A stretch of DNA of 64,000 bases, taken from assembly GCF_026210795.1 (NCBI RefSeq), contig NC_089432.1, positions 5,828,001 to 5,892,000 on the forward strand, read 5' to 3'. The position numbers and the translations under genes were made by a program. The DNA is from Rhizophagus irregularis (taxonomy: Eukaryota). Positions 31,841 through 60,289 of this stretch are shown here, piece after piece; the stretch's first letter is position 1; every line of letters starts with the position of its first letter. The notes beneath the pieces are model-generated. The model did not search any database, was not told the DNA's origin, and worked only from the letters and a program-made list of their open reading frames with translations.

Positions 31841-32638
31841 ATGAAACTTCGTCTTTTAGATATGGATGAAGTCACAAAGCATGAATCATCCCGAAATATT
31901 GGCCATCCGGCGATGACATAGACTTTCAGCAAATTGGTCACTGGAAAAAGTGGTTCAGGTAAGACTAATTTACTTGGAAACCTTGTTCTTGGTGATAAGG
32001 ATGAATATGTGCAAAGAGGGGAGGAAGGTGGGTCTCGCTACATTAAATGTGATGATCTAATTGTTTGTAGGTATCATCCTGATGAGCCAAAATGGGGATA
32101 TGTGAGGTATATATATAATATGATTTCAAAGGATCCAAAAGCGCCTTTCTATGAGGATATTAGTTTCAAATACATTCCACCCGAAAGAATTCCTAGTACA
32201 AGAGCATTCTCACCTGAAAGAAGCACACTAATTATTTTTGAGGATCTGTGCTTAGCCCCTGAACATATACAGAATCGAATTAGCCAATTTTTTGGGAATG
32301 GACGTCATCGAAATATTTCAAGTATATATGTAACCCAAAAATACCATAAAGTCCCTACATTCATTCGTGAGAATATCTCCCACCTAGTAATGTATAACGG
32401 TGGTGGTAGCCAACAAGATGTGTCCAAGATAGTTGGTCGTTATACTGATGATGTGAAAAATGCATCCATTGTTATTAATAGCTACCTTTAAAGAGGTGAA
32501 TTTATTGTATTTGATCTCACTAGGCCAGAAGATGATCCCCTTGCAATCCGCCTAAGGTTTGACACTCCACTAAATCTGCAGAAGGAGATAGAAGCTAGGC
32601 AAAAGCGTAAGGAAAAAAGCTCCTTAGCTAATAAATAG
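31841..32638 (+). pseudogene. A32-like (FtsK/HerA) DNA-packaging ATPase of Polinton/Maverick type
   Basis: Walker A GKSGSGKT, Walker B LIIFEDL, and GRHRNISSIYVTQKY...VPTFIRENISHL, the A32 signature. Internal TAA at 32489-32491; the frame continues to TAG at 32636-32638. Confidence 0.85.
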
Positions 32639-32687
32639 AATCTGACTTTATAGATGCTAGCTTTTTTTCGTAATTATAAAAATTGGA

Positions 32688-33896
32688 ATGGGAGAGCGTC
32701 AAGCTGAAAGACCGATTATTTATATCGATCCCCAAAAAGCGCGAGAGTTAGACCAAATTATAGCAAAACAAACACCTACGATTAATATCGATCCCCAAAA
32801 AGCTCATAATTTAGACCGGCATCTTGCTTTGCAAAAACTATATTATCGTTCTGAAGGTCTGTATCAAAATGTTAAGGGATTGTGGGATGCTTATAAAAAA
32901 GCCAGCTACAGCTTTCCATTTATTGATGTAAAAAAATGGCTTGAGAACCAAGCAATGTATCAAATTTTTCGTCCTTCACCAAAGCATATACCTTATGCCA
33001 GTTACTCTAAAATTACGAAGCCAAATACTGTGCACCAATGTGATTTAATCGAAATACCATATGATGAAGATGTGGATACAAATTTACTAGATGATGGCCC
33101 AATATATTACTATGTACTATTGGTTATAGACTGCGCGACTAGATATAAAGATTTTGTTTTTTTAACATCAAAGAGCAGTGAGGAAGTTGCGGAAGCATTT
33201 AAGAGTATATATGATAATCCCGATAAGCCTCTCAACTGGCCTCAAAAATTGCAATGTGATAAGAGCACTGAGTTTATGGGATACGTAACTTTATTAATGA
33301 ATGAACATGGCGTTGAGATCCGAAGAATTACAGCACGTTTCAGGCATACAAGCTTAGCTATGGTCGACCGTTATGCTGGATTATTCAAATTAAGAGTTTT
33401 TAAAAATCAGTATTCAATAGAGTTTCTCCTACCTACTGGTAAGCGCTGTAGAGAATGTGAACGATTTGCAAGGAGAATTGTTGATAATATGAATGATACT
33501 CCAACCCGGCTAATTGGAATGAGTCCTAATGATGCCACAAAGCTTGAGCGGATATATTCCAAACCATCTGTAAAATATAATCGCCCAATAGGTATTGATG
33601 AACCACAACTACCAAAGAGTACTACTGTCCGATTCTTGCTTGCTCCTGGAGAATGGGAAAATGATCCTTTCGAAAGACGCAGAATAACAGATCCGATATG
33701 GTCTCCTAGCCTACATAAGATCCAGAGAATTGTTGTTGGAAAGAATCCTCCCATGCCTGTTTTATATTACTTAGATGAATCAGAACCTCAATGCCCTTTT
33801 GTGAGAGAACAATTGATGCATATTAAGGAAGAGCCCATGTTACCTCCTAGGTGGGTATTGGGAGATAACCAAATGCATACAAGGCGCCCCTTATAA
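32688..33896 (+). CDS. Retroviral-like (rve) integrase of Polinton/Maverick type
   Basis: LQKLYY...VKKWL...HQCDL...YVLLVIDCATRY...VAEAFKSIY...PQKLQCDKSTEF...AMVDR...NDTPTRLIGMSP. Intact 402-aa ORF. Confidence 0.85.
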   Translation: MGERQAERPIIYIDPQKARELDQIIAKQTPTINIDPQKAHNLDRHLALQKLYYRSEGLYQNVKGLWDAYKKASYSFPFIDVKKWLENQAMYQIFRPSPKHIPYASYSKITKPNTVHQCDLIEIPYDEDVDTNLLDDGPIYYYVLLVIDCATRYKDFVFLTSKSSEEVAEAFKSIYDNPDKPLNWPQKLQCDKSTEFMGYVTLLMNEHGVEIRRITARFRHTSLAMVDRYAGLFKLRVFKNQYSIEFLLPTGKRCRECERFARRIVDNMNDTPTRLIGMSPNDATKLERIYSKPSVKYNRPIGIDEPQLPKSTTVRFLLAPGEWENDPFERRRITDPIWSPSLHKIQRIVVGKNPPMPVLYYLDESEPQCPFVREQLMHIKEEPMLPPRWVLGDNQMHTRRPL

Positions 33897-37840: not shown

Positions 37841-39052
37841 TTAAATATTAGCTTTTAATTGAACTAATTGAATTTGCAAATTATTTTTTTCCATTTGATG
37901 TTCATTTTGAAAATTTTGATTATTAATTTCAGCAATTTTTTCTAATTTAAAGAGCTCTTGTTTTAATTTAAGAAATAGAATTTCATTTAAATCTTTACTA
38001 GTAAAATTATGTAAATGACTTGTATAGTATATTTGTGAATAAGAATTTACAATATGATTAATATAATTATTACTTGATGCATTTATAAATTCCATAATAT
38101 TGCTTTTTAATTCTTCATTAATATCTTCAATTTTCTTTTCTAAAGGAAAAGAAATCCAATTTTTAATAATATTTAAAATTTTTGATGCAGATGGCCTTTT
38201 TAATGGATCTTCATTCCAACATTTTTCCATTAAATCTACATAACATTGTGGAGTATTTTTAATAATTTCAGGACATTCACCTTTACAAATATCTAAAGCA
38301 AGTTGAAGATTATCATGTGCTTTATCATTAAATGGTGAAATTCCAGATGTAAATTCCCACATAATCATAGAAAAACTATATATATTACTAGCTTGAGTAT
38401 AAGATTGACCTTTTAAAATTTCAGGTGCCATAAATGGTATAATACCATAAATATTATTTAAGGATTTTGTAAGTTGGTGCAATCCTAAATAATCACTAAT
38501 ATAAATTCCATACATATTTTCTTCATATTCATGACATAAAATATTGTCATCATAAAAGTTATAATGAATAAGATCTTCTTTATGAATATCATTAAGACCA
38601 TCAATAATTTTATATAAATTAAATAATTTTTGTTTCCAGGTTTTTGTTATTTCTGTTAAGCATTTTCTTAAATTACCTTTATTTGTATATTCCATTATTA
38701 ATATATAATTCAAAGTATCTGGATTTTTTGTAAATCCATATATTCTAATAATTTTATCTGAATCAATAATTTTCCACTATAAAAAATAATTTAGTTTATT
38801 AGTATAAATAAATTATAATTAATATAAAAAAAAATACTTAATCATACTTCATTTAAACTTTCATTTGAATTATTAAGATAATCAAAATCTTTAAGAATTA
38901 CTTTGATTTCTTTATATTTAGCTTCATATATAGTACTAAATCCTTTTTTATCAGAATATTTATTAATATTTTCAAATTTATCATAAGGAATCCATTTTAA
39001 TTTATTTTTAGAAATAAATTGATCCATAATTTTGCTTCCACTATAATCATAT
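37841..39052 (-). CDS. Tyrosine-kinase-like (TKL) kinase domain of the expanded glomeromycete family; catalytically degenerate (pseudokinase or pseudogene)
   Basis: SGSKIMDQFI...LKWIPYDKFENI...GFSTIYEA...VILK|...IYGFTKNP...YILIMEY...GIIPFMAPEIL...SNIYSFSMIMWE...TPQCYVDLMEKCWNEDPLKRPSA. The HRD loop reads HYNFYDDN and DFG reads DYLG. Confidence 0.8.
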
Positions 39053-39654
39053 CTTTAAATATAAAAATAAAATTATATTAAAATTTAAAATGTAATTTAC
39101 AATTAAAAATTTAATATTAAATAATATAAATTACTTACTTTAAATAAAATTATAAAATTTTAATATAATAATAAATAATTAATTTAATTTTTATATAAGT
39201 TTTATTATATATAATAACTTATAACTTACCAACTAAATAAAGTTTAAAAGATTTAATAAGTAAATATTATATAACTATAAAAAATTAATTATATTAAATT
39301 AAAAAAATGTAATATATACTTACAAGCTAAAATATTTTAAAATAAAGAATTTAGTTAGTTTTAATTATATGAAAAATATTATATAAATATAATAGAAATT
39401 TACCATCTGAAATATTTAAATAATTTTTTACATAAAGAATTTGGTTAGTTTAAATTATATATAAATATTATATAAATATAATAGAAATTTACCTTCTGAA
39501 ATATTTAATAAATAAAAAATTTAATTAGTTTAAATTATATGTAAATATTATATAAATATAATAAAAATTAAATAAATAATTTATAACTTACCAACTAAAA
39601 GAAATTACAAATAATTGTTAAATAAAAAATTTAGTTAGTTTAAATTATATGTAA

Positions 39655-39903
39655 GACTATTTCAAACTAATTATTAGTTTAACATTCTTTTTGGTTGAAA
39701 AATTGAGAGGAAAGAAGAAAATAATAAATAAACATGATATTTAAATATATTAAAATTTTGAAAGTTTTTGGTAAAATCAGAAATATTTAGTACATCCAAT
39801 GGATATTTTAAATTTATGTAAATATATGTATTTAAATTATTTTAAAATTTTTAAAAATAGAGAAAAGAGAAAATGTTAAACTAAAAATTAATTTGAAATA
39901 GAC
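39655..39903. mobile_element. MITE with TAA TSD (PIF/Harbinger- or Zator-like), in an array intron
   Basis: TIR G(A/T)CTATTTCAAA(C/T)TAATT(A/T)TTAGTTTAACATT with TAA on both sides; removal restores TATATGTAAATATT. Confidence 0.75.
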
Positions 39904-40999
39904 TAAATATTATATAAATATAATAGAATTAAATAAATAACTTACAATCTATATTATTAAATAAATGATTTTTTAAATAAAGAATTTAATTAGTTTAAAT
40001 TATATTTAAATTTAAATATTATATATTACCATCTAAAATATTTAAATAATTTTTTAAATAAAGAATTTAGTTAGTTTAAATTATATGTAAATATTATATA
40101 AATATAATAGAATTAAATAAATAACTTACGAACTATATTATTAAATAAATAATTTTATAAATAAAGAATTAGTTAGTAGTTTAAAATACATGTAAATATT
40201 ATATAAATATAATAGAATTAAATAAATAACTTACAATCTATATTATTAAATAAATAATTTTTTAAATAAAGAATTTAATTAGTTTAAATTATATGTAAAT
40301 ATTATATAAATATAATAGAAATTTACTTTCTAAAATATTTGAATAATTTTTTAAATAAAGAATTTAGTTAGTTTAAATTATATGTAAATATTATATAAAT
40401 ACAATATAATAAAAATTTACCATCTAAAATATTTGAATAAGTTTTTTAATAAAAAATTTAGTTAGCTTAAATTATGCATAAATTTTATATAAATATAATA
40501 TATAAAATTAAATAAAATTAAATAACTTACGAACTATATTATTAAATAATTAAATAGTTAGCTTAAATTATATATAAATATTATAAAAATTAAATAAAAC
40601 TTACTTTCTATATTATTAAATAAATAATTTTTTAAATAAAGAATTTTAGTTAGTTTAAATTATATATAGATATTATATAAATATAATAGAAATTTACCAT
40701 CTAAAATATTTGAATAATTTTTTAAATAAAGAATTTGATTAATTTAAATTATATGTAAATATTATATAAATATAATAGAATTAAATAAATAACTTACAAT
40801 CTATATTGTTAAATAAATAATTTTTTTAAATAAAGAATTTAGTTAGTTTAAATTGTATATAAATATTATATAAATAAAATAAAAATTTACCATCTAAAAT
40901 ATTTGAATAATTTTTTAAATAAAAATTTAGTTAATTTAAATTATATATAAATATTATATAAATATATATATATATATTAAATAAAATTAAATAAATAAC

Positions 41000-43900
41000 G
41001 ACGCGTACACAGCAGACAGAGAATAACTACACGCAACAAAATGCAAATGTATATAACAACAACACATACAATTTAACATTCATGGGACACAACATTAACG
41101 GCCTGGGCCCCGATCATTCCAAACTTAATTTACTAATAGAATACTGTTCAAACAAAGGAGCTGATATAATAGGTATATGCGAAACAAACAGAGATAGAAA
41201 ACACGGAAAATTTTGGAACAAACAAACACTAGAATATACCTCTTTCTGGACTAACAAAGACAACAAGATAAAAGGGTCAGGAGTTTGCATAATGATTAAC
41301 AAGAAATGGGAAAAACACATTGGAAAAGTCAATAGAATAGGTGCATACTACATAGAAGCTTGGTTACTCTTCAAGAATTGCACGCTCATAGTAGGTGTAA
41401 TATACATACCACCATCAGACACGAAAATACAAAGTGAACTAACAAGCTATATTAAAAAAGAATTCACTAATCACAGTAAAAAAAATAGGTATTACATTCT
41501 GATAGGAGATCTCAACTCATATTTGGACAGAACACTAGATTATAGCGGCCCATCCAAACTCGGAAAAAAACCTTCAAATATAATTACGTGGTTAGACAAC
41601 GCCTTTTTTACGACACGTACAGAAAACTAAATCCCAAAAAGAGATGCTTCACATGGAAAAACAAAAATACATCAACTAGAATTGACTACATATGGGCGGA
41701 CCCTAAACTTGAAGCTAACATAAGAAAGAGTCACATATACCAGTCAATTGACATTACAGATAGTGATCACAACATCACACTCGCAGAAATCTCTTTCACT
41801 AATATAATAGTCACTAACAACAAAGGAGGTAGAAGAGCAGAAAAGAACTCAACACGTATTGTATATGACTATGAGAACACCACAAATGAACAGTGGAACA
41901 GATATGAAAAATACCTTAATGGCCTGCTGAAGAAACATAAAGCCTTCAGATACATAGAGAAGCCAATGGACAAAATGAGGATACACTAAATAAATTATGG
42001 GACATCATATGTAACTGCATACAACAGGCCGCGCTTAAACACATTCCACACAAGAAAATAGGCGGCGTCAAAACCAACTTTAATAGGAATTATAAAGAAA
42101 TCGAAAACTCCTCTAAAGAACGTAAGGACCTATTATATATTAGAAGTATAATGAGGAAATTATATAAAAACGAATTGAAGGGGGTAGAGTTACGCAACGC
42201 ATCAAAAGGAATTAAATCGTTCAACCAATGTTACGGAACCAACATAGCAGAGATAACGGAAGACACGGACTGGCACACATGGAAATGCGAAACGAGAAAC
42301 TGGCTGAAAATAGTCAGAAGAATAATTAAAATAAAGGACAAGGCAATCAAAGAAGCATCAATAAAGAAAAGGATAGAAGAAAGAAATAGTATGATTACCA
42401 AGGATCAACGGAAAATGATTAATAGCATCCTAGACAAAACATACTCAAAAATCAATCTGGACAGAATACGTATACTCACTGATACCCAAGAAGAAATATT
42501 GCCGAACTCTAAAGAAGAAGTCCATACAGAAGCGATTAACGCGTATTCATCCCTATTCCGCTCACGAAATCATAAATTCGAGAATCTCCCAGAACAGTGG
42601 AAAGAAATATATGAACCGCGAAAGACATAAACCCGGAAATTTACGAACACCTAAATGATATACCGACCGAACAAGAGTGGTATGAGATGCTCGAAACTAT
42701 GAACGATAAATCAGCACCAGGCATCTCTAACATCAGCTATAAATTAATCAAGAAAGCTGGTGCAAAAGCCAATGACTTGTTCAGGCAATACACAGGACTA
42801 CTGTTATTTGTTACAAAACATACCTATGAAATGGAAAATCTCTCAATTGTATCCGATCCCCAAGACTTATGATTGGGATTTCAACCTAGCAAGGACGAGA
42901 CCAATTTTACTTATTGAGTGCCTGCGTAAATGTGCAGTCAAAATTACCACAAAATGCCTAGGAAATATTCTCAGTAAACACGAAATTTTAAAAGGACCAA
43001 ATTACGCGGGATTACCAGGCGAATCTACATCAGCACCACTTTCAATAATTAATGGTATTCTAGAAGACGCTCGTGAAGAGAATAAGACAGTATGGATAGT
43101 GGCTCAAGACATGGCGAAAGCCTTCGACAGCGTCGGAATGGTTCCCTTGCAAAAAGCTCTGGAGAGAATTAGATTACCACCATCCACCATTAATTTCATC
43201 ATAAATATCTACAAAAACCGTAAGATCAAGATCATCACGGTGTACGGTGTAACCGATACTTTCACAGCATGCGATGGTATAGACCAAGGGGAGGTTATAT
43301 CCCCATTGATCTGGAGAATTTTTTACGATCCCCTCCTCCATAGAATACAGGAAGATGAAGCTTTAGGTTACTGCATGGAGCTAAATTGGCCGGACAACGT
43401 TTTTAATAATAATAAACGGAAAATAACAGTACGAACCGCCGTGTCGGCATACGCAGATGACACACAATGGATCGCCAAAAGTAAAAATGAAGCAGAAGAA
43501 ATTTTACTAATTGCGGACGAATTTTTTGATATCAATGACATAAAAATTAACGGGGAAAAAACTGAAATTATCGTTGTAAATCCGGAAGAAAGCAACGAAA
43601 ACGAAAGGTTCTTGGAGATAGGGAAAAATAACGACAAAGTGTTTGTCAACAAGGGATCAGTTCCAATACGCATTCTGGGAGTATGGTTCAAAGCAGACAA
43701 AGGAGACAAACACATAGAAGCTATAGTAAAGAAAGAGATATCGACAATAGTAGGGGCGATTAGACACAAACACATAACACATGCGCAAGCGATCTACATT
43801 ATTAACACTGTTTTACTCCCGCGACTAGAATATAGGCTTAAAACAACCGTGTGGGAAGACAAAAAATATGAGGAAATTTTTAAGCCGGTTATGCAAACAA

Positions 43901-46827
43901 TTAAACATAAGACGCGACTGCTCAGCAACTGTCATGACAACATTCTTCTCCACTCAGCACAAGGCAAATTAAAGAACCTGTGGAGAAATCAAATAGCAGC
44001 GCAAATATCAGAATTCCTAGTCACCATTAACTCGCAATCGAAACAGGCGGACGTAGTTAAAATGAGATTAAAAAAGGCGCAACTAATATTAAATATAACG
44101 TCTTGCATTTTATTGATGGAGCCGGACGTCACAGTTCTCAACAAAATGCCTAACAATCACGCCTACAACGTAATGAGAAAAGCACACGACTACTTATTTA
44201 AATTTCAACCATTAACAGATAACGAAGAATGGGACATACCACTAATAGGACCGAACGTAAGAAACTTTGTATATCAACAAGCGTCAAAGATGCACAGGAA
44301 AGACAAAGAATTCATTATAAGAAAAGCTGCATCTATGTCGATCTACGGTGCATTACAATTAGTTAATCAGGACGCTTCGGACACAGTCACATGGCAACAA
44401 ATCTGTGACATCAATAAAAGACCAGCAAGAGGCAGGACTCCGCAATGGTTTAATTCACTAACAGATATCATACAAAAGGCACCCAACCTAAAAAACTATT
44501 ATATGACGGATAAGGCGCCCTTTGACTCAGAAAATAGATTAGAAAATGATGGAATGTATTTAAAAAACGCACAGGCGTTCAGGATGCCAAAGAAGTTACC
44601 ATCTACAGATAATAGAAAAAAAGAATTCGTCCATATGCAACAAGATTATACGTTAACATTTGGACAAATTAACAAAAAACTTCAAACAGGTAAACATACG
44701 ATACAACATTGGACCACAGCTGACAGTGAGCAGAGAATGGACAACGAAGTGCCATATAAATTAATTAAGCGATGTGGAGGTTGCTCACTAAACGACAGAA
44801 GGGTCAACAAAGAAAACCGTGGTTGCTTCTTCAATAAAGACCGCACGTCGTTAACATGTATAAATAGAGTATCCAAATACCGAACTGATCCAGATACTAG
44901 AATAATCAAGGACATTATAGAAACCAGAGGCTACCCACAATTACAACAAAATGTGAGACATAGCCCCAGTTACATACAAATGGTAGACTATCGACACGGC
45001 TCTAATACAAAACACGTTAGTGAACAATGAAGCCTATGACACAGCATATAGCGTTGCTACAACAAATAAGATCAACCTTTAACCCATCTGACATGATTAA
45101 TATTTACACAGATGGCTCATTAACAAACCGCTTTAACAATAGTTCTAACACTTTTACAAAATACATGGGTACAGGCTGGGTGATACTGAATAGTAAAGAC
45201 GAAGTAATACTGGAGTGTAGTAGTTCAATCACAGACTGGCCCTCATCCACACGTGCAGAATTAGGAGCCATCTTGTCAGCTATATTGGTTTTACAAACAG
45301 GTCAGAAAGCAAATATCCTTACTGACTCACAAGCTGCTATAGATAGTATCAACTACATAAGAACAAATTTAACAAATGGAAAAAACAAAACAAGAATTTG
45401 GTGCAAATGCAACAACTACAGCATAGTAAGTTGTATAATTAACCTTATTGACAGCAAACGGTTAGAAATAAAGTTAGTAAAAGTCAAAGGTCATTCTGGA
45501 GTCAAAGGCAATGAAGAAGCAGATAGGGTAGCGAAAAATGATACTAATAGTTTAACTTGCATCAAAATTAAAGATTCACAACAAAAAGATTTAATATATG
45601 ACATTTATTGGGATGGTATAAGAGTTGACAGGCACATCAGAAAATTCATAGATAATTTGTGTGAATCCACATTAGACGCAGCATGGTCCCTCAATCGTAC
45701 ACATAGATCAGTATTTTCAGACACAACTGACACAATAGAAGAAGAAGTCACCTGGACATTATTTAAAAAAAACACAGGATCTAACTGCACAACATCAATG
45801 ATAAATGACAGATTTATCAAACACTTGAAACTTTTAAATTATTTGCTTCCAACTTTAGAAATCATGAAAGAAAGAAGATATGACTTATATGGAGATGTAA
45901 AGTGCAGGTTTTGTCTTGAAGAAAATGAAGATGATGATCATATGATATACTGCAAACAGCTCAGTGATAAATGGATAACTATAGCTAACAATACTGTATG
46001 TAAATGTAATCAAACAATCAAGAACTTCTTATTACAAGAAAAAAATATTCAATTAAGTCAGGAAGATATACAACAATTACTCATATGGAACAGAAACTTC
46101 TTTGCCCATACTATTGATGCTAATCTTGATTTACCCATTCCGCATATTCATTTAATGATAAGAAGTTTCTTTCCAAAAGAAAAATACAGGGAGCTCAAAA
46201 TTATTGTCAAGACAAAAAGAATAGCATTAACTATTGCAGCCCTCTTTCTAGAAGTATTTGTTAATGAATTTTACAATATTATTTGGCAACCACGTTGCAA
46301 GGTAACAGCAGAATGGGAGCATACCAAGGGTATAAAAAAACAAGACTTAAGAAAAAAACCATTAGCACATCAACGTATTGTATATAAAAGGATTCTAACT
46401 TTACAGACAGAGGATGGCATATATGATTTGGAAAAGAGGAAAATATTAAAACATAATGAACAATGGTCAATAGCATTAGAAAAAGCAAGACAATATATAA
46501 ATCAATTTATTAAAGAGGGAAATAGGGTATTTTGGAAAGTATATAACAACAAAAAAATATATAAATATAACATAACCCTTTTTTTTTCTTTGTTTAGAGG
46601 GTAGTGGAAGCTATACTGAAATCTTATAATATGGTGATCCTATATAATTCAATAGTAACTATAGAAGGATATAGGTGAATTTTATAAGGTGATGGTAGGG
46701 CACAGGAGCAATCTTATGGATGGGGAACTGGTTTGGAGTTTTAATAAATTAGTTATATAACAGATGCTTTTGTATTCTTATATATAATTAATAAACTCAC
46801 AAATTGCACTACCTTGCAAAAAAAAAA
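41000..46827 (+). mobile_element. Non-LTR retrotransposon (APE endonuclease-RT-RNase H-Zn finger), 5' truncated, frameshifted
   Basis: APE motifs HNING, DIIGICET, GDLN, RIDYIW, SDH. RT motifs QDMAKAFD, GIDQGEVISP, YADD. RNase H motifs IYTDGS, RAEL, TDSQ, VKGHSG..GNEEAD. Poly(A) tail and TSD AAAATTAAATAAATAAC. Confidence 0.95.
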
Positions 46828-47026
46828 AAAATTAAATAAATAACTTACAATCTATATTATTAAATAAATAAATTTTAAATAAAAATTTAATTAGTTTAAA
46901 TTATATATAAATATTATATAAATATAATAGAATTAAATAAATAACTTACTCCCTATATTATTAAATAAATAATTTTTAAAAAACATTTAGTTAGTTTAAA
47001 TTATATATAAATATTATATAAATATA

Positions 47027-47270
47027 GGATTTTGTTTTTTATCGCATCTGTAATACATTACATCCTGAATATTTCAGATAAAATTATATAATTCTTGGCA
47101 AAATAAAAAATATGTTAAAAAAACTAGGATGTAAAAATAGATTTTTTACAATTGAAAAAATTTTAAATTCTCATAATACATATAAAAAATATATAAAAAG
47201 AAAAAAAAATGTGATATAAATGATAAAAAAGGAATGCAATATATCACAGATACGATAAATTATAAAATTC
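47027..47270. mobile_element. Mutator-like MITE in an array intron
   Basis: Imperfect TIR of about 38 bp (TTTATCG.ATCTGT.ATA.ATT.CAT) and 9-bp TSD ATAAATATA. Confidence 0.75.
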
Positions 47271-48413
47271 ATAAATATAATAGAATTAAATAAATGACTT
47301 ACAATCTAAATTATTAAATAAATAATTTTTTAAATGAAAAATTTAGTTAGTTTAAATTATATATAAATATTTTATAAATATAAATAGTATTAAATAAATA
47401 ACTTACTAACTATATTATTAAATAAATAATTTTTTAAATAAAAATTTAATTAGTTTAAATATATAAATATTATATAAATATAATAAATATAATAAAATTA
47501 AATAACTTACGAACTATATTATTGAATAAATAATTTTTTAAACAAAAAATTTAGTTAGTTTAAATTATATGTAAATATTATATAAATATAATAAAAACTT
47601 ACTTTCTAAAATATTTAAATAATTATTAAATAAAAAATTTAGTTAGTTTAAATTATATAAATATTATATATAAACTTACCATCTAAAATATTTGAATAAT
47701 TTTTTAAATAAAGAATTTGATTAGTTTAAATTATATGAAAAAATATTATATAAATATAATAGAATTAAATAAATAACTTACGAACTATATTATAAATAAA
47801 TAATTTTTAAAGAATTTAATTAGTTTAAATTAAATATAAATATTATATGAATATAATAGAAAATTACCATCTAATATATTTGAATAATTTTATAAATAAA
47901 GAATTTAGTTAATTTAAATTATATGTAAATATTATATAAATATAATAGAATTAAATAAATAACTTACAAACACTGGTCAAATGATGAAGAATCGGTGTAT
48001 TAAGAGCCAGTTAAGAATCGGGACCAATCAGGTTTCGGTTCTTAACCGGCTCTTATTTTTTTTATCATTAAATAATCAGTATCCCGATAGGCCTATTGAT
48101 TCTATTATATAAGAAGCCGATAGATTCTAAACGTATATCAAATTTGATCAGCTGATAATAAGTAACAAATTGATTACCCCTTCGGATTTCCCGATGACTA
48201 ATAAATAAACACCCGATCTGTCATGATCTGTCATTAATTTATAAATAAGCATCGGTAAAACATCACATGTCCGATAATAATACTGATAGAACATTGATAT
48301 TAGACGGTGAGAAATTTAAAGGTTTAATAATAATTATTATATATTTATTTATTTGTATATTTATAATATTCATAATATAAAACATGATTGATATTACAGT
48401 ATTATTATAAATT

Positions 48414-51400
48414 TTAAATATGAAACTTTCTATTGATCGGTATTACTGACACATATTTCCGGGTTTCTTTTCGTCCTATTGAAAAAGAACCTTCAACAAA
48501 CCGACCCAGTATACTATGTACAGGGGATAATACAATCCCTGCTAAGATCATAAAATTCTTTTTTCCATAGTTCTATATTGCACAAATTTTCATCGCCATT
48601 AATTGTGCAATGAAATCTAGTCTTGTGATTTTCTGCCGGAAGGTACCACTTTACAAATGCTAGGGAATGATTTACAGAACCTTCCGGAAAATGTATAATA
48701 TGTTCAAAATAAAATTGAACAATACCGGGATAAGTATCTTTAGTATTATCATGGAGAAATTGGGATAATATTTTGGCCGATGTGACGTGCCTTTTAGAAT
48801 ACATTGACCCAAAAACTTCGGATCCAATTTTTAGTCGTCCATAAGTGTTCACTTTTGGTAATACCGGTATAGCAGAAGGAGCAGCATGGATATCTGATAG
48901 TGCTGCGAAATCTTTTCCATAGGCATTGCGGTAATATTCAACCAACAAATCTAATACTTCTTTTGAAAGGTTGGTGTCTATCCTTTTAGGATTAAGAAAA
49001 GTACCTGGAAAAGGTTCCGAACCTGTTCCGGCCATTTCTTCCACGTTTCTAGACATTGATAAAAATTCCCGGTAATCTATTCCATTAATTTCATCATGAA
49101 TTACAAGACTGCCGGTAGTTTCTTTCGGTGTAATTAGTGTGATACAAGTCGATAAATGTTGATGGTCTTGGGCGCATGAAGAAAACTGATCGAAGAGAGT
49201 TGAATTGAATGGTTTTTAATAATTCTGGTTCGATTCTTCTATTACTGCTATGATACGATCCTATAAATATAGACTATTTAATAAATTGATTTAATTATAT
49301 TGATAAGTTCGGAAATCTGGAATTACCTAATAGACCGTTCATGCGTTCGTAACTGAAACACCAGAACGCGTATAATGGTCCATAGTCTAACGCACAATGG
49401 CAAATATGTAAGCATAAATGTAAATTCGGCGTAATTTTTTCTGCGCCGTAATTTTCTTCAATGAGCTTTGCCACTTCTAGAAGATTTTTATGAGCTTCTT
49501 CTAACCCATTCGTTGTTATAGATCTGCATACAAGAATATTGCATGCACGGACAAAATTGGCGAGTATCAATTTATCCGATTCTTGAAGCAGATCCCACGT
49601 TATGGAAGTGGCATAAATTAAGATAAAAGTCTTCCATTGATCAGCGGTGAACCTTGAAAAGCCTTCACCTGTAGCAATTTTGTAGGGAATTCTACCGATA
49701 TCTGCTGGAACTTTTATTGCATTTGCCCTTTTTTGCATTGTTTCTAAATCTTTTTGTGTCAATCGGCCCTCCTCGATCCACAGTCTGGTCACGATCCACT
49801 TAGCAATACCCAAGAACAAACAATGCATTGGATCCACTGTGAGAAATCGCACTGAATCAAAGTACGGAAGTCGATACATTTCTGACCACCGTACTAAAGT
49901 ATTATGGACGTGACTATTTCTAGCATCTTTAGTATTGCAATTCAACCATTCTCGCGCATCCCTTCGAACCTGGTTGATATCTCTTTCGACAAACCATTCA
50001 TCAATATCATCAAATCCGCCAAAATTCGGTTGATTTCGATCATCATATTGAGCCTTTTTTAAGCATCTATGACAAGCCACTCGCGCAGAGATATGACCGC
50101 AGAGTTTTCTCGCGGCTGGAATATCACATGAGCAGCATATTACTGCGGCTCGAATAGATTTTCCGGTAGAGCTTTCGTATGTTTTCGATAGTTCAATCCC
50201 ATTCCATAACTCGATTAATTGATCGATGATGGGAGCTATATAATGGTTTAGTTGATGTAAATCTAGGCTCATTTGGCCCCGGAATTAAAGCCATTGTCAA
50301 AATATTTGATGGCTTGAATCTTTCATTTCGAGGCAGGTTACATATTACACCATATAGAGCTCCTATACTATAAGTTGAATTATCGAATGGTTGGAACCAG
50401 TCGATATTTAACATGATGCCTAAGTGGCGGTCTGAGACATCTTTCCGGAAAAATGGTATATTTTGACGATGATCCTGAAAGGTTTTCCAGATCTTTCCGT
50501 CATAAATATCATTCAAAAATTGAGAATCGTTACGGTCCGCCCATTTTCTACATAATTTCTCAAATCCTTTTCGATTATACATTAATTGTAATTGGTGTTT
50601 TAAACTAACAGTAGGGAACGTTAAAGAAGGTCGATAGATTGTTCCGTTAGTAACCGGAACTTTCTTAGCAAGTGTAGCATTGCACTTTTTTCTTTGATTT
50701 GCCATCGGATGATCCGGAAAATCTACATAGGTACAATGAATTGTGGCTGGAACTTGGTAAGGGTCGTTAGTTGATACTTCTGTTACATTATACAATTTGC
50801 AACACTTTTCACACGATGCGAATTTGACAATATGAGCGCAGACGCCAAGTTTTTTACGTGCCATATACAAAGATGTAGGAAAAGAATTGTACGTGTTTGC
50901 ATCCAAAAGAACCAAAAGATATCTAAAAAATTTGACTAAAGAATCGGTAGTGACATCGGATAACTTATATCTCTCTTGATATAATAAGATCCATAAAACA
51001 ATCCAATGAAAGTCTTCAGTAAAATCAATGAAGGAGGCTTCTGGATCATCACCGTATGTATTTTCCGGTGCGTCAAACCAGCCGGATGAAGATTCATTTG
51101 GTATTTCTTCGATAGGATCAAAGTCATTATCAACTTGATCGTTTTCTTCATCATCAGCATCACTAGTATCATCATCTGAAATACTTTGTTCAATAACAAC
51201 AATAGGGTATGATACATTCTTGGAATTTCCACTACCGATATGTTTTCGTTTATCTTTCGATTTGGCTTTTGATGATTTCGATTTTTTGGGAAGAAACGAA
51301 TAATTTTCCTCATCAACAATAGGTTCATGATGACCATCATCTGAATTATGTGATTCTATTTCCATTGGATCATTCAAGAGGTCTACCGATGTATCTTGGT

Positions 51401-51620
51401 TTAGGTCATCAGATGAAACTTGATTTAAATCTATAATTTCTTCAATAACTCCTCTTGGTCTAATATCCCTTTTTAAACTATGACTATTTTTTGTACGTGG
51501 ATCAACTATGTTACCTTTACATTTATTGCAATGACACGGAACTTTATTTGATGTTTTCTGTTTAAAATTATAGGATTTCTTTACAAAGACAGCTTTTGTT
51601 CTTCGGTATTTTCTCGTCAT
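48414..51620 (-). pseudogene. En/Spm-type transposase, frameshifted
   Basis: DIYDGKIW, LNIDWFQPF, ICNLPRNERF, IPGPNEP, CDIPAARKLCGH, VDPMHCLFLG, ITPNLHLCLH, YAFWCFSYERMNG, YPGIVQFYFEH across three ORFs. Confidence 0.9.
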
Positions 51621-52277
51621 TGTAAATAATAATATAAAAAAATTTTATTAAAAATGAATTTCCGGTTCTTCGATGAACGGATATATTAGTATGATTGATA
51701 ATTGACATTGTTGACCATATTAGGTTACTATCAATTTATTGTATTTATTGTATTTAAATCAATATAAGTTCCTTTATTTGAATCAAAAAAAGCTTATACT
51801 TCAATAGACTATTTCGTTATTTTCAATAGACTTATCGGCATGAAAAAAAAGGAAAAAAAAATTCAATCAAAAAAAGCTTATTTAATAGACTATTTCGTTA
51901 CTTTCGACAGACCTATCGGTCCTCATATGACAAAAAAAAAAATATATATAAAGACCCCTTTCTTCCCACGAACTGATTTTTTTTTCTCTGCCATATCATT
52001 ATACTTTGATCTAAATCATTAAAAAAAAATCGTAATCATTACATTTAATCTAATTATAGGAAAAAAAAAATATTATTAATAATCATAATATTTTAATTGT
52101 GGAAATAAATAAAGGTATAAAAGAACGTCTTTTACCTTATTGTATTGTTTTTTTTTTATCCTTTAACAAATTTTGGTAAAAATGCGTGGAAGAAGACCTT
52201 TCAAAATTAAGAAAATAAGCTTAAGACGCTTATCTACAACAAATTTAACCTCTTACAACCATCATCAAACAAACTCA

Positions 52278-53792
52278 ATGTCACCACATCGTCGTCACCG
52301 TTATCGTTCAAGAAGGAACAAGTCTAGACGTTCTTCTTATTCTAATTATTCAGATAGTCGTTCACCAAGTCAACAAAGAGGACGTTCGACTACAAGACAT
52401 AATAGGACTAATTATTCAGATAGTCGTTCACCAAGTCAACAAGGAGGGTGTTCAACTACAAGATATAATAGGAATGATGGTATGGTTATAATATAATAAT
52501 TATGTTTTTTATTTTACATATTTTGAATATAATGTCATGATTTCAATTTACAGATATCGAAGCCCTAAGCAGAGCTATCACTGCACTTACGGAAGAAGTT
52601 CGGACCCCTCAAGAAATCTCAAACAAGGAACGACCTACAAGCTGAATGGCCATCAACCCCTCAGACAACACCAGTTCCAAGGAGTAGACAAAATACATCA
52701 CTCACGCCAGAACCAGAAACTGGATATCGTCGACGTGCTCGGGTTTTGCTTGAAGATATGGACGAAGATCAATATAAGTTGTTCCATGTGAGTATCAAGT
52801 AACTATTGGTTATTCAGCAAAATTTTTTAATCGATATTTTTTTATAAAATTAAGGATGAGGTCGTGCAGATACTTAGCGGTCTCGATGATTCATTGCAAT
52901 TGGATCATACCAAAAAATGGGTAGAAATTGCACCACACGTTTCAAAACACATCATGAAGGAGATCGCTAGAGTCTTGACCGGAAGGTTTCAATACAAAGA
53001 TATAGAATTGAAATGGGTCTTACAGAATCTACACCGCCATCGTAGAGAAAGCTGGATGGTTAGCCTTGATCCGGATAAGACTAGATTTGAAAAGAAGAGA
53101 AAAGGAACGAATTCTCGAAGAAAAGATGTAAGTACTGAAGACATCCGAAATATGAAATTAAAATCCTTGATCTTGTTCCTTTCTATCCTAATCACTAATA
53201 TCTGATTGCAATAGAAAAAAGAGCGACGTCAGAAAGGCATCGAGCATATGTTCAATATTAATGATGCCTCGCTTAAAGAATTTCAACCGTCATCATTATC
53301 TTGGGAAGAATTCAAGGAAGACTGTGAAACCATATTTAATGAAGGAGGATTCCACAGTGATGAAGTTTCTGAAACTGATGAAGAGCTCACCAAAAAAGAA
53401 ATCGAAGATCATGTTCGTCCTAAGAATAAAATTGAAACGGATAAACATGTTCTTCATGTTTATGACAAGCCCTGGAGGTCACGTCGTGTAAGTATCAAAT
53501 AAAACAATTGTATAGTTATTGTATACATTTGCTTATTATCTCTTTTTCATTTTTATAGGGACGTAAATTACTTCGCTTGGCTGACCGAGTTGGTGAGAAA
53601 ATAAGTCATGTAAAACTTTCACGACATCGTTGGTATGATGATAAAACGTGGATCGACGAGTCAAAACCGCCTGAAGGTGCCCCTGATTGGTCGATATCAC
53701 AGTCGTACGGATCCGACGTACAACCACAAGATGAGATCGATAATATCGATAATATTAATGATGAACCTAACGAACTTGATGAACAGGTTTAA
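52278..53792 (+). CDS. Second, intron-containing gene of the EnSpm element (SR-rich N-terminus)
   Basis: Exon chain 52278-52478, 52554-52787, 52855-53127, 53215-53487, 53560-53792, bounded by GT/AG (boundaries approximate). HSDEVSETD...PWRS motif. Confidence 0.6.
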
Positions 53793-54719
53793 TTAATGCA
53801 TTAATGCAATGTTAGATTTAAAAGAGCACGTATATTAATAATAATTTGTAGTTTATATTTTTATTACGCAAGAATGATTTGTAGTTTATTTCTATATAAC
53901 AACGATTAAATATAGCAAGCAAATGTATTACTGTAAAATTGATTAGTATATTGCTATATAATATATTGCAACGAATAGTAATAAATTGATTAAAACAATT
54001 TGAAATATCGTGATTTCAATTACTGCCCGGCGTGTATTGTATCGTTTAACGATACTTTATGATAACCCAAATAAATACTTAAATATTATATAAATATAAG
54101 TAAAATATCAGAAATCCGATATTAACATAATATTTATCCGATTTGCACCTTATAGTTTATTAAAACTTCAAAAGATTCAGTTATTAATTTGGTAAATATT
54201 GGGCGTTTATTTGTAAAATAACAGAAACCCGATTCTTCACCAATAGAAATCCAATACTTATGAAGTATTTATGCCCGGTTGTATCCAGAAATGCAACAAG
54301 AACCTGAGCCCAATCGGGAATAAGTATCGGGATTGTATAATATATATATCTGTGAAGAATTAGTGAAGAATCGGGTACCTGAATTTTCTCTGATATGTTG
54401 TCATTCGACCAGTGAAACTATATTATTGAATAAATGATGTTTTAAATAAAGAATTTAATTAGTTTGAATTATATGTAAATATTATATAAATATAATAAAA
54501 ATATACCTTCTAAAATATTTAAATAAAAAATTTAGTTAGTTTAAATTATATGTAAATATTATATAAATATAATAAAAATTTACCATCTAAAAATATTTAA
54601 ATAATTTTTTAAATAAAGAATTTAGTTAATTTAAATTATATATAAATATATAACAAAATTAAATAAATAACTTACTTCCTATATTATTAAAATAAATAAT
54701 TTTTAAATAAAGAATTTAA

Positions 54720-55174
54720 GGCATGATCCGCCTAAGAATGGCAGCAAACTACTATATAAATTCGGGGGAAAAAATTAAAACCAAAAAAAGGCATTATCTC
54801 ATGATCCAGTGATTGGATTTTGATGATCCCTTTTCGAGTTTATAGCTTTCGATGCACTCTTCAAAACAAAATCGAAATTGGACTGGTATATCACAATATA
54901 ATCACAAAAAATGATTTTTTCCAGGTAAATCTTCCGATGCCCCCGATAAATCTTCCGTTGCCCAGAAAAAATTATATTTGCAATTATCTTGTGATATATT
55001 GGTCCAATTTTAAATATCTTTTTTTTATTTTAAAGAGTACATCAAAAGCTATAACCTCAAAAAGGGATCATTAAAATCCAATCACTGGATCACGAGATAA
55101 TGCCTTTTTTTGGTTTTAATTTTTTCCCCCGAATTTATATAGTAGTTTGCTGCCGTTCTTAGGCGGATCATGCC
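54720..55174. mobile_element. Foldback MITE with very long TIRs at a TTAA site (Kolobok-like if the termini are GG)
   Basis: GGCATGATCCGCCTAAGAA...TTCTTAGGCGGATCATGCC, with arms complementary for roughly 200 bp. The TSD reads as TTAA, or as TA with AGG termini. Confidence 0.85.
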
Positions 55175-56039
55175 TTAATTAGTTTAAATTATATGTAAAT
55201 ATTATATAAATATAATAAAATTAAATAAATAACTTACTCCCTATATTATTAAATAAATAATTTTTTAAATAAATAATTTAATTAGTTTAAATTATATATA
55301 AATTATATAAATATAATAAAATTAAATAAATGACTTACCAACTATATTATTAAATAAATAATTTTTTAAATAAAGAATTTAGTTAGTTTAAATTATATAT
55401 AAATATTATATAAATATAATAGAAATTTACCATCTAAAATATTTGAATAATTTTTAAATAAAAATTTAATTAGTTTGAAATTATATATAAATATTATATA
55501 AATATAATAGAAATTTACCATCTAAAATATTTAAATAATTTTTTAAATAAAGAATTTAATTAGTTCAAATTATATATAAATATTATATAAAAATAATAGA
55601 AATTTACCATCTAAAATATTTAAGTAATTTTTAAATTTAGTTTAAATTATATATAAATATTATATAAATATAATAGAAATTTACCATCTAAAATATTTGA
55701 ATAATTTTTTAAATAAAGAATTTGATTAGTTTAAATTATATACAAATATTATATAAATATAATAGAATTAAAATAAATAACTTACGAACTATATTATTAA
55801 ATAAATAATTTTTTAAATAATGAATTTAGTTAGTTCAAATTATATGTAAATATTATATAAATATAATAGAAATTTGCCTTCTAAAGTATTTGAATAATTT
55901 TTTAAATAAACAATTTAATTAGTTTAAATTATATATAAATATTATATAAATATAATAGAATTAAATAAATAACTTACTCCCTATATTATTAAATAAAGAA
56001 TTTTTAAATAAAGAATTTAATTAATTTAAATTATATATA

Positions 56040-56204
56040 GAAATAATGTATTTACCGCACCCTGCGTTACAAATTTATATATATTTGTATGTTTATCATT
56101 TGCCATTTTAAGGGGGTACAGTGTATAAACTAAAGATTGACATAAACAATTTACAAAAAAAGAAGGATGCGTTGTAATGCAGGGTGCAGTAAATAAATTC
56201 ACTC
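56040..56204. mobile_element. Mutator-like MITE
   Basis: TIR core TATTTAC(C/T)GCACCCTGC(G/A)TTACAA and 9-bp TSD TTATATATA. Confidence 0.75.
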
Positions 56205-57514
56205 TTATATATAAATGTTATATAAATATAATAAAAATTAAATAAATAACTTACGAACTATATTATTAAATAAAAATTTAGTTAGTTTAAATTATATATA
56301 AATATTATATAAATATAATAGAAACTTACCATCTAAAATATTTGAATAATTTTTAAATAAAGAATTTAATTAGTTTATAAATATTGTATGAATATAATAG
56401 AATTAAATAAATAACTTACAATCTATATTATTAAATAAATAATTTTTTAAATAAAAAATTTAATTAATTTAAATTATATATGAATATTGTAAAAATATAA
56501 TAAAATTAAATAAATAACTTACTCCCTATTAATAATTTTTTAAATAAAAAATTTAGTTAGTTTAAATTATATGTAAATATTATATATATATAATAGAAAT
56601 TTACCATCTAAAATATTTGAATAATTTTATAAATAAAGAATTTAGTTAGTTTAAATTATATATAAATATTATATAAATATAATAGAATTAAATAAATAAC
56701 TTACAAACTATATTATTAAATAAATATTTTTTTAAATAAAGAATTTAGTTAGTTTAAATTATATATAAATATTATATAAATATATACTAATAGAAATTTA
56801 CCCTCTAAAATATTGAAATAAAGAATTTAGTTAGTTAGTTAGTTTAAATTATATATAAATATTATATAAATATAATAGAAATTTACCATCTAAAATTTTT
56901 GAATAATTTTTTTAAATAAAAAAATTTAGTTAGTTTAAATTATATATAAATATTATATAAATATAATAGAAATTACCCTCTAAAATATTTGAATAATTTT
57001 TTAAATAAAGAATTTAGTTAGTTTAAATTATATATAAATGTTATATAAATATAATAGAAATTTACTCTCTAAAATATTTAAATAATTTTAAATATAAAAT
57101 TTAGTTAGTTAAATTATATGTAAATGTTATATAAATATAATTGAATTAAATAAATAACTTACGAACTATATTATTAAATAAGTTTTTAAATAAAAGATTT
57201 AGTTAGTTTAAATTGTATATAAATATTATATAAATATAATAAAATTAAATAAATAACTTACATACTATATTATTAAATAAATAATTTGAAATAAAAAATT
57301 TAGTTAGCTTAAATTATATATAAATACTATGCAAATATAATAGAAATTTACTTTCTAAAATATTTGAATAATTTTTTAAATAAAGAATTTAGTTAGTTTA
57401 AATTATATGTAAATATTATATAAATATAATAATATAATAGAAATTTACCATCTAAAATATTATTTAAATAATTTTTAAATAAAGAATTTAGTTAGTTTAA
57501 ATTATATGTAAATA

Positions 57515-58126
57515 GAAAAAAATTATTTCTTATCTGGGTGATTTCTCACCCCTTCTGAATTTAATATATAAAAATGACATCATACTAATTATTTACCGAT
57601 TATTTTCAAAAGAAAAATAATGTAATTTTTGACAAAAAAAATCTTTTAAAAATAAAACTTAATTCGTGATCTGGATGTCGATCAGTGAAAATTCGTAAAT
57701 AATAAGAATTTGCTGTTGCCACAAAGACAAGTCATTTTTTAATTTTCATCGGAAGGGAAATTAATAATGCATTCAAAAGCTGTGGTTTTTCTGCTATAAA
57801 ATACTGTGTAATATTTTCATTTTGTTGAACTGGATGCAGTGATAGATATCTTACCCACAAAAATGCCAATTAAATGAATTTCATTAATGATCTACAAAAT
57901 TTCACCCCATTTTTTGATAGTAATTTTCACTGATTTATAACCAGATCTCAAATTAATATAATTTTTGTATACTTTAAAATTACAATTTATGGGTAATTTT
58001 AACTGCTCTACAAATTTACTTAATACCTTAAGAAAGGTTATAAATACCATTTTTGACATTTTCAATAATTTATGATTTGGGGATGAGAAATATTAAATCT
58101 TACCCAAGGTGAGAAATAAATTCATC
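57515..58126. mobile_element. Mutator-like MITE, degenerate
   Basis: 10-bp TSD TATGTAAATA and imperfect TIR (TTATTTCT.A.CT.GG). Confidence 0.65.
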
Positions 58127-59860
58127 TATGTAAATATTATTATATAAATATAATAGAATTAAATAAATAACTTACAAACTATAAATAAAGAATTAGTTAG
58201 TTTAAATTATATGTAAATATTATATAAATATAATAGAAATTTACCTTCTAAAATATTTGAATAATTTTTTAAATAAAGAATTTAGTTAGTTTAAATTATA
58301 TATAAGTATTATATAAATATAATAGAAATTTACCTTCTAAAATATTAGTTTAAATATTTTTTTAAATAGTTAGCTTAAATTATTATATGTAAATATTATA
58401 TAGATATAAGAAATAACTTACTTCCTATATTATTAAATAAATAATTTTTTAAATAAAGAATTTAGTTAGTTTAAATTATATGTAAATATTATATAAATAT
58501 AATAGAATTAAATAAATAACTTACGAACTATATTATTAAATAAATAAATTTTTAAATAAAAATTTAGTTAGTTAAATTATATATAAATATTGTATAAATT
58601 AATAGAATTAAATAAATAACTTACGAACTATATAATTAAATAAATAATTTTTTAAATAAAGAATTTGGTTAGTTTAAATTATATATAAATATTATATAAA
58701 TATAATAGAAATTTACCCTCTAAAATTTTGATAAATAAAAAATTTAATTAGTTTAAATTATATGTAAATATTATATAAATATAATAGAATTAAATAAATA
58801 ACTTACGAACTATATTATTAAATAAATAAATTTTTAAATAAAAATTTAGTTAGTTTAAATTATATATAAATATTATATAAATATAATAGAAATTTACCCT
58901 CTGAAATATTTGAATAATTTTTTAAATAAAGAATTTAGTTAGTTTAAATTAGTATATATAAATATTATATAAATATAATAGAAATTTACTATCTATGATA
59001 TTTGAATAATTTTTTAAATAAAGAATTTAGTTATTTAAATTATATGTAAATATTATATAAATATAATAGAATTAAATAAATAACTTACTCCCTATAATAT
59101 TAAATAAATAATTTTTTAAATAAAGAATTTTAGTTAGTATGTAAATATTATAAATATAATAAATATAATAGAATTAAATAAATAACTTACGAACTATAAT
59201 TATTAAATAAATAATTTTTTAAATAAAAAATTTAGTTAGTTTAAATTATATGTAAATATTATATAAATATAATAGAATTAAATAAATAACTTACAAACTA
59301 TAAACAATTTTTTAAATAAAGAATTTAGTTTGTTTAAATTATATGTAAATATTACATAAATATAATAGAATTTAAAATAAATAACTTACACCCTGTAATA
59401 TTATTAATTAATAATAATTTTGTAGTAAAGTAATTATAATCAATTATATAATTCTATATAAAAATTAAAATATATACAGTAACTTACAATCTAATTATTT
59501 AAATAAATAATATTATTAGTTTGAATTATATAAATATTTTTAAATTAATATAAAATTAAATACTTACTTGCTATAATATCAGTGATTATTAAACAATTAT
59601 AATAATGAAAAATTTAGTTATTTGAATATCATGTAAAATATAATAAAAATAAATAACTATTAACTTACTAACTATAATAACGTTAATAATAAAATAAATT
59701 ATTTGGTTATATAAAATATAATAGAAGTAAGTAATTTAATTATCATTCCAACAAGATATCCTATTACTTACGAGCTAATATATTAAAATAATTTTTAATG
59801 ATTAGTTTAAAAATTTAAATCATGTGTTTATTATTTACAAGCTGATAATTATTTTCTTAC

Positions 59861-59983
59861 CTTTATCTTCCTCAATTCTTGAAACTAGTTTTATTATATT
59901 GCAAATTTGTTTATAAAAATTTTAGATAATTTGTATTAGATTTATTTATATTCATGCTATATGTTTTTACCTTTATGAGCCAT
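59861..59983 (-). CDS. Putative first two exons of the micro-exon/kinase gene (59971-59983, 59861-59884)
   Basis: ATGGCTCATAAAG|gtaaaa...aactag|TTTCAAGAATTGAGGAAGATAAAG|gtaaga encodes MAHKVSRIEEDK, with both introns phase 1. A CCAAT box lies upstream (GATTGG near 60112). Confidence 0.6.
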
Positions 59984-60289
59984 TACTGAATAATTTTATT
60001 GGAAATCTTCCTAAAAAATAGGATAAATACAATTAAACGCCTTTGTTCGAGTATATATAGTTATTTGTGTAATATTAGCATAAGGGTACATTGGTTGATC
60101 AGCAAGGATCTGATTGGCTGAAATCAATTTTTATAACAGATTGATTTTTTCGTAATGCCGATTTTGAAGGTCTCACAAAAAATTCCAAGGAAAAGATCAT
60201 CTATTACTTCTTATTCTTGCTCACGTGAGTCTAGGAACCATTTTTATTAAAAAAAGACCAAGTTTTATTAAGTTTTATTGTCTTTAAAG

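Follow-up and report, generated by a model that had tools for sequence, protein, structure and literature searches.

Codon-sized microexons were reportedly described by Iotti et al. in 2012 in the nank family of Tuber melanosporum, which encodes NLR proteins of the NACHT-ankyrin type. The micro-exon genes (MEGs) of Schistosoma offer another case, with exons of 6-36 nucleotides (nt) and secreted proteins that are varied by exon skipping. The available text of three papers describes the nank family as diversified through tens of exons the size of a codon, which are alternatively spliced (PMC10197012, PMC4986451, PMC13449251). For Rhizophagus irregularis, the accessible portions of the literature give 2,533 kinases with unknown roles (PMC10234402) and an expansion of the TKL (tyrosine kinase-like) group (PMC4219462), with background in PMC11121469. 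Here we analysed 64,000 nt of R. irregularis DNA (contig NC_089432.1, positions 5,828,001 to 5,892,000; hereafter the window), AT-rich eukaryotic sequence in which the kinase exons of a TKL-type gene on the reverse strand are preceded by 70 putative three-nt exons. The reading we favour, with a probability of roughly 0.7, is that these serial units are likely spliced in phase 1, with one codon formed at each junction, and would build a variable N-terminal segment of the kinase, the copy in the window probably being a decayed one.

With its 70 units, the window shares with Tuber nank the tens of consecutive 3-nt exons, and in both fungi the array belongs to an expanded family and is taken to diversify a signalling protein. 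As far as the available descriptions of nank go, host and layout differ: the genes here encode kinases and pseudokinases of the TKL type of Glomeromycota, with neither NACHT nor ankyrin domains seen, and the array is N-terminal with exons that straddle codons (phase 1). Alternative splicing is reported for Tuber, whereas here stop avoidance in the DNA points to joined neighbours; no homology is implied by the likeness. The MEGs of Schistosoma likewise vary a protein through series of short exons that leave the frame intact, but the exons here are 3 nt long and precede a cytoplasmic kinase domain. Published models in the TKL repertoire of R. irregularis bypass the array or begin within the kinase exon. 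Set against that repertoire, the window's subfamily stands out in having no catalytic Asp. A literature search at the level of titles and abstracts found no report of micro-exon arrays in Rhizophagus, arbuscular mycorrhizal fungi or Glomeromycota, and micro-exons go unmentioned in the main-text passages on exons and kinases in PMC10234402, whose supplements may bear on this, and in those on the TKL expansion in PMC4219462. The array type is already known from Tuber, and what is new is the gene family and the lineage.

Putative three-nucleotide exons in series

Upstream of the array, exon 1 (59971..60010, reverse strand; ATG at 59983) contributes 13 coding nt and ends in phase 1, and exon 2 (59861..59884, reverse strand; 24 nt) carries phase 1 to phase 1, so that its ending phase is the one given in an initial annotation of this stretch. 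The Met-Ala-His/Leu/Gln start of annotated paralogues is similar to exon 1. Between exon 2 and the kinase exons lie the AG-NNN-GT units (39230..59774, reverse strand), 69 of them intact and one split. The first kinase exon (38848..39040, reverse strand) has plausible acceptors at 39052 and 39040, both of which require phase 2, and contains the annotated start Met; the second runs through the stop (37841..38776, reverse strand) and encodes a TKL-type domain. The kinase exons, including the open reading frame (ORF) at 37841-38776, match P0001, a kinase-like protein from R. irregularis DAOM 197198, with 100% identity, and the annotated models for this gene begin inside the kinase exon and omit the array.

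Units were extracted from 84 AG-NNN-G(T/C)A sites in 38800-60100, of which 69 passed a filter for AT-rich flanks; the unit at 59774 was added by hand. From 59774 to 39135 on the reverse strand, this gave 70 intact-looking AG-NNN-GT units, the triplet at 39137 included, and a split 71st (TTT). The initial annotation had taken all 71 triplets as exons, which stands for the array as a whole but not for two of its members: the triplet at 39137 (TAA) is probably no exon, and the split unit, number 45, is not spliceable as 3 nt in this allele. A two-exon pattern matched 29 times in the window and never in 100 shuffles, and 55 of 69 units have a CTAAY resembling a branch point no more than 65 nt before the acceptor; both results place the units beyond chance. 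Introns free of insertions are 66-107 nt long and AT-rich, and seven are lengthened by insertions. The end units have diverged and the inner ones are near-identical tandem copies; the lag profile of the window array is flat, with no regular higher-order period.

Reading phase and stop avoidance

The initial annotation had claimed that the joined triplets are stop-free in phase 1 and had ascribed this to selection on the fully included product. Joining them yielded exactly its 71-residue peptide, free of stops. Its supporting counts were equally sound: 14 of the 71 triplets end in T and none of these is followed by an exon starting with AA, AG or GA, about a quarter of exons (16 of 71) start that way, phase 2 is rich in stops (14 in the window), and phase 0 is open up to the last triplet. 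When the order of the window's triplets was permuted (20,000 shuffles per block size), stop-freedom reached p = 0.018 for single exons and p = 0.18, 0.37 and 0.49 for blocks of two, three and four, which justifies the annotation's own caveat that duplicated units are not independent. On its own, the window's stop-freedom is only modestly beyond chance, a weak signal.

Related loci were collected by scanning metagenome contigs (50 of 64 parts) with a tightened pattern; viral contigs, on which the two-exon pattern gave 17 single matches resembling chance or simple repeats, served as background. The scan returned at least 119 stretches, forming 116 loci. We kept 72 by contig-name prefix (WN.., Ga01373.., Ga0190269), these being the sets that contain kinase-bearing contigs. 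The remaining 44, for the most part contigs richer in GC or made of simple repeats, were excluded before counting. Removal of 8 overlapping loci left 64 loci with 80 chains, 569 exons and 489 junctions, among which the last parsed exon of L089 is actually the start of a kinase exon and further parse errors are possible. A tblastn search with kinase proteins matched 21 loci, all within the 72, and the longest matches to P0001 were 45-53% identical. Exon length hardly varies, with 398 of the 403 short exons that have strong flanks measuring 3 nt exactly, and 11 related-locus ORFs matched kinase, SPRY or TPR families in Pfam, with no NACHT or ankyrin.

Across the 489 adjacent junctions, phase 1 contains a single stop (in L093), against a permutation mean of 18.4 and a minimum of 8 in 5000 permutations. 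In these related arrays, on which the check that the initial annotation had proposed for paralogous ones was repeated, phase-1 stops are therefore far rarer than at random. Block permutation left the deficit in place (p = 0.0006 for pairs, p = 0.015 for triples), and phase 2 holds 98 stops at the same junctions. Exons starting with AA, AG or GA follow A-, C- and G-ending exons in 38 of 167, 14 of 43 and 30 of 135 cases (82/345 together) versus 1 of 144 after T; with each junction type counted once, the figures are 1/74 after T and 59/211 otherwise (p = 4e-8). The avoidance recurs in kinase-bearing loci (1/158, p = 0.005), in the other loci (0/331) and after removal of the first three exons (1/265). 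A preference for Trp was rejected as the sole cause of the missing stops, given that 1 of 84 T-ending junctions other than TGG forms a stop, whereas 82 of the 306 non-GG starts after other exons are AA, AG or GA.

Stop rates at more distant pairings are at chance level (2.6-5.7% over lags 2-5; 17/409 at lag 2, where one exon is skipped, and 19/336 at lag 3), which indicates that selection acts on neighbouring exons. Because single skips are also stop-free in 392 of 409 cases, the joining of neighbours does not imply constant inclusion of every exon. The counts support selection on what adjoining exons encode together in phase 1; of the annotation's claim of selection on the fully included product, this much stands, and in this allele that product has no in-frame link to the kinase through canonical sites. 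Judged from these comparisons, the array is real, family-wide and under selection as phase-1 coding sequence; its splicing and the function of its peptide are inferred.

The flanking exons were read in 21 chains chosen for an opening Trp split as T|GG, an upstream donor being found in 20. In all 20, the upstream exon has no phase-1 stop in its last 7 codons or more. Phase 0 was rejected as the coding frame, as a stop in the penultimate codon closes it just before the array in 18 of 20; its openness within arrays follows from the near absence of exons starting with TA (2/569) or TG (11/569), starts that would probably introduce rival splice sites. The second residue ahead of the array junction is Leu in 19 of 20 chains, as part of Ala-Leu in 10. 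In the relatives, Ala-Leu-x-Asp/Asn-Trp is formed by the end of an ordinary exon and two micro-exons; an Ala-Leu-x-Asn-Trp run in the window is encoded wholly by micro-exons. The Trp split across two exons is conserved among the related loci. At the 3' end, 10 of 16 non-duplicate loci, and L089 by inspection, have a TAG acceptor from which the kinase frame is reached only in phase 1; L055 ends its array with a 1-nt exon that converts phase 1 to phase 2.

Asn, Trp, Asp, Tyr, Ile and Arg are abundant in the array peptides, and Trp occurs 60 times versus 29.6 expected under permutation. Exon strings are almost entirely specific to a locus: of 334 four-exon strings, 2 recur between loci. In spanning trees of units with near-identical flanks (conservative version), per-site differences were 0.18-0.32 for exon bases, 0.03-0.05 for flanks and 0.00-0.15 for intronic control triplets. 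Of the three exon bases, the middle one (third codon position) shows the fewest changes in the related loci (6-10 versus 9-18 and 18-31). This faster change of exon bases fits diversification.

Several observations stand beside these counts. Otherwise intact arrays in L032, L034, L089, L116, L120 and L121 contain dead units with mutated donors or acceptors, the skipping of which would keep the frame. An array of this type, split Trp included, comes after sequence coding for TPR in L077, L088 and L092, and for SPRY as well in L077; the cassette therefore also occurs outside genes that open with a short acidic exon. Six 3-nt exons lie upstream of a different kinase subtype in L023:1-1390. Under a loose parse, chains from four very AT-rich contigs of other assemblies (L048, L123, L108 and L111, excluded from the counts) lack stops in phase 2 rather than in phase 1; L048 seems related to L123, and the four are possibly another organism's arrays or parse artefacts.

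The kinase and the state of this allele

P0001 matched only kinase domains in Pfam (PF07714 and PF00069), without NACHT or ankyrin, and the best 120 of 815 matches to the ORF at 37841-38776 were Rhizophagus or metagenome kinases. The solved structures nearest to it are TAK1, RIPK4, CTR1, Roco4 and MLK1, which make it TKL-type and place it with the TKL-group kinases of Glomeromycota. Its catalytic loop reads HYN (Asp to Asn) and the DFG position reads DYL; since these replace the HxD and DFG motifs of catalytic kinases, it is a predicted pseudokinase. HYNF occurs in 7 collected proteins versus HCDF in 105. Eight models of paralogous Rhizophagus kinases (P0004, P0038, P0071, P0092, P0128, P0130, P0136 and P0149) have N-termini rich in Ile, Gly, Leu and Met. 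These resemble the phase-0 composition of the arrays and may be wrong-phase readings of similar Rhizophagus arrays.

In the window, no open frame runs from the ATG through the array into the kinase by canonical sites: the array delivers phase 1, the acceptors at 39052 and 39040 need phase 2, and the other frames into the kinase exon close early. The last introns of L055, the locus closest to the window's subfamily, align with those of the window at 80% mean column identity. In this alignment the degenerate last unit (39135..39148, reverse strand; AAAG-TAA-GT) lies opposite the 1-nt exon, and a matching acceptor and exon are absent. The TAA at 39137 is thus probably the wreck of a 1-nt exon rather than an exon. 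A weak alternative donor 4 nt past one of the last exons could restore the frame in minor transcripts.

Two large insertions interrupt the array. A CACTA-type DNA transposon (47971..54414, strand not assigned; 6444 bp, CACTG...CAGTG ends, Transposase_21 matches) was inserted at unit 45, and its 3-bp target duplication is the exon TTT itself (54415-54417 and 47968-47970). One of its ends adjoins an acceptor plus triplet and the other a triplet plus donor. A LINE retrotransposon (41000..46828, forward strand and hence antisense) lies in the intron after unit 54 and retains endonuclease, reverse transcriptase and RNase H sequences, a poly-A tract and a target duplication of about 16 bp. Smaller intronic insertions include an element with terminal inverted repeats and TTAA flanks (54720..55174, strand not assigned) and four others near 57510-58130, 56040-56205, 47030-47260 and 39650-39900. 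With a split exon, a LINE in an intron and a lost 1-nt bridge exon, the window copy is probably a decayed allele, or one that yields only the annotated protein from the downstream Met, where any kinase product of this allele would start given the lost frame link. As the fully included product reaches no in-frame kinase here, the selection seen is probably ancestral.

Elsewhere in the window, about 14 kb is enclosed by two oppositely oriented arrays of 24 x 51-bp units (15504-16741 and 28634-29864), whose inner repeats near 17000 and 28300 match; the two are probably the ends of one large mobile element. ORFs near them resemble, by eye, an ATPase (31922-32491) and an integrase (32661-33896).

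Alternative explanations and implications

That the array is an unspliced intronic satellite, its AG-NNN-GT look inherited from one duplicated unit, is very improbable. Current gene models do omit it, and Tandem Repeats Finder (TRF) calls it a tandem repeat of about 90-100 bp, but a satellite would not explain why the final base of a triplet avoids certain first bases about 90 nt away only where a stop would form in the phase of the flanking exons. We also think it unlikely that the exons are spliced and translated into a neutral, tolerated linker, with units spread by tandem duplication and only stops and frameshifts purged by selection. Such a linker would accord with near-identical tandem units, with the accumulation of transposons and dead units, and with peptides that share almost nothing between loci except the opening Trp motif. 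It sits poorly with Trp at twice its permutation frequency and with exon bases that change several-fold faster than their flanks, and more so at amino-acid-changing positions in the related loci.

The array could instead be mainly a combinatorial splicing device that yields many skip isoforms per nucleus, as reported for Tuber nank, an option compatible with phase-1 splicing into a variable segment but doubtful as the principal role. All exons preserve the frame, most single skips are stop-free as noted above, and a simulated inclusion of 90% leaves about 70% of window transcripts without a stop; together with the Tuber precedent, this speaks for skipping. The chance-level stops at skip junctions, however, argue against skip products as what selection mainly acts on.

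Several points weigh against the preferred reading of a phase-1 segment joined to a kinase, which is drawn here from DNA sequence. The window's own signal fails under block permutation, and no in-frame array peptide precedes the kinase in the protein N-termini inspected (120, 51 and 17 of 87 from homologue and representative searches). The related loci are contig fragments, with a longest chain of 21 exons and none complete from ATG to stop; their 3' junction is ambiguous in 4 of 16 cases (L052, L069, L074, L101), L034, one of the ten with a phase-1 acceptor, has a stop later in its kinase exon, and the 1-nt bridge is known from L055 only. The edges of the spanning trees are partly dependent, and homogenisation of introns with retention of exons could give a similar pattern of divergence. 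A recognition role for the segment draws on analogy rather than on direct support.

If the phase-1 reading holds, the array would grow and be reshuffled as entire units, intron and exon together, are duplicated or exchanged by unequal crossing-over, as its diverged ends, near-identical inner units and lack of a higher-order period suggest. Because whole units move, each event would add, remove or swap about one residue without shifting the frame, and each paralogue would thereby acquire its own segment rich in Asn, Trp, Asp, Tyr, Ile and Arg. Such a segment would most likely serve as a diversified binding or recognition surface before a kinase or pseudokinase, as proposed for the Tuber NLRs. 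More tentatively, and as a possibility short of even odds, single-codon exon cassettes in many kinase and some SPRY-TPR genes of arbuscular mycorrhizal fungi may form a family-wide diversification system, reshuffled by recombination and splicing. Its segments, rich in Trp, Tyr, Asn and Asp, might serve recognition or self-assembly in an immune-like or nucleus-identity sensor repertoire that arose independently of the Tuber NLRs.

Should the phase-1 reading be correct, a hypervariable N-terminus would lie hidden in the 3-nt exons of a kinase subfamily, and current gene models would be wrong at their 5' ends. For the splicing machinery, 70 serial three-base exons would be an extreme case, in which neighbours are joined in order across exons too short for spliceosome contacts. 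What these kinases sense would become testable, since genome sequence would reveal the variable segment, which could then be swapped or compared across strains and nuclei.

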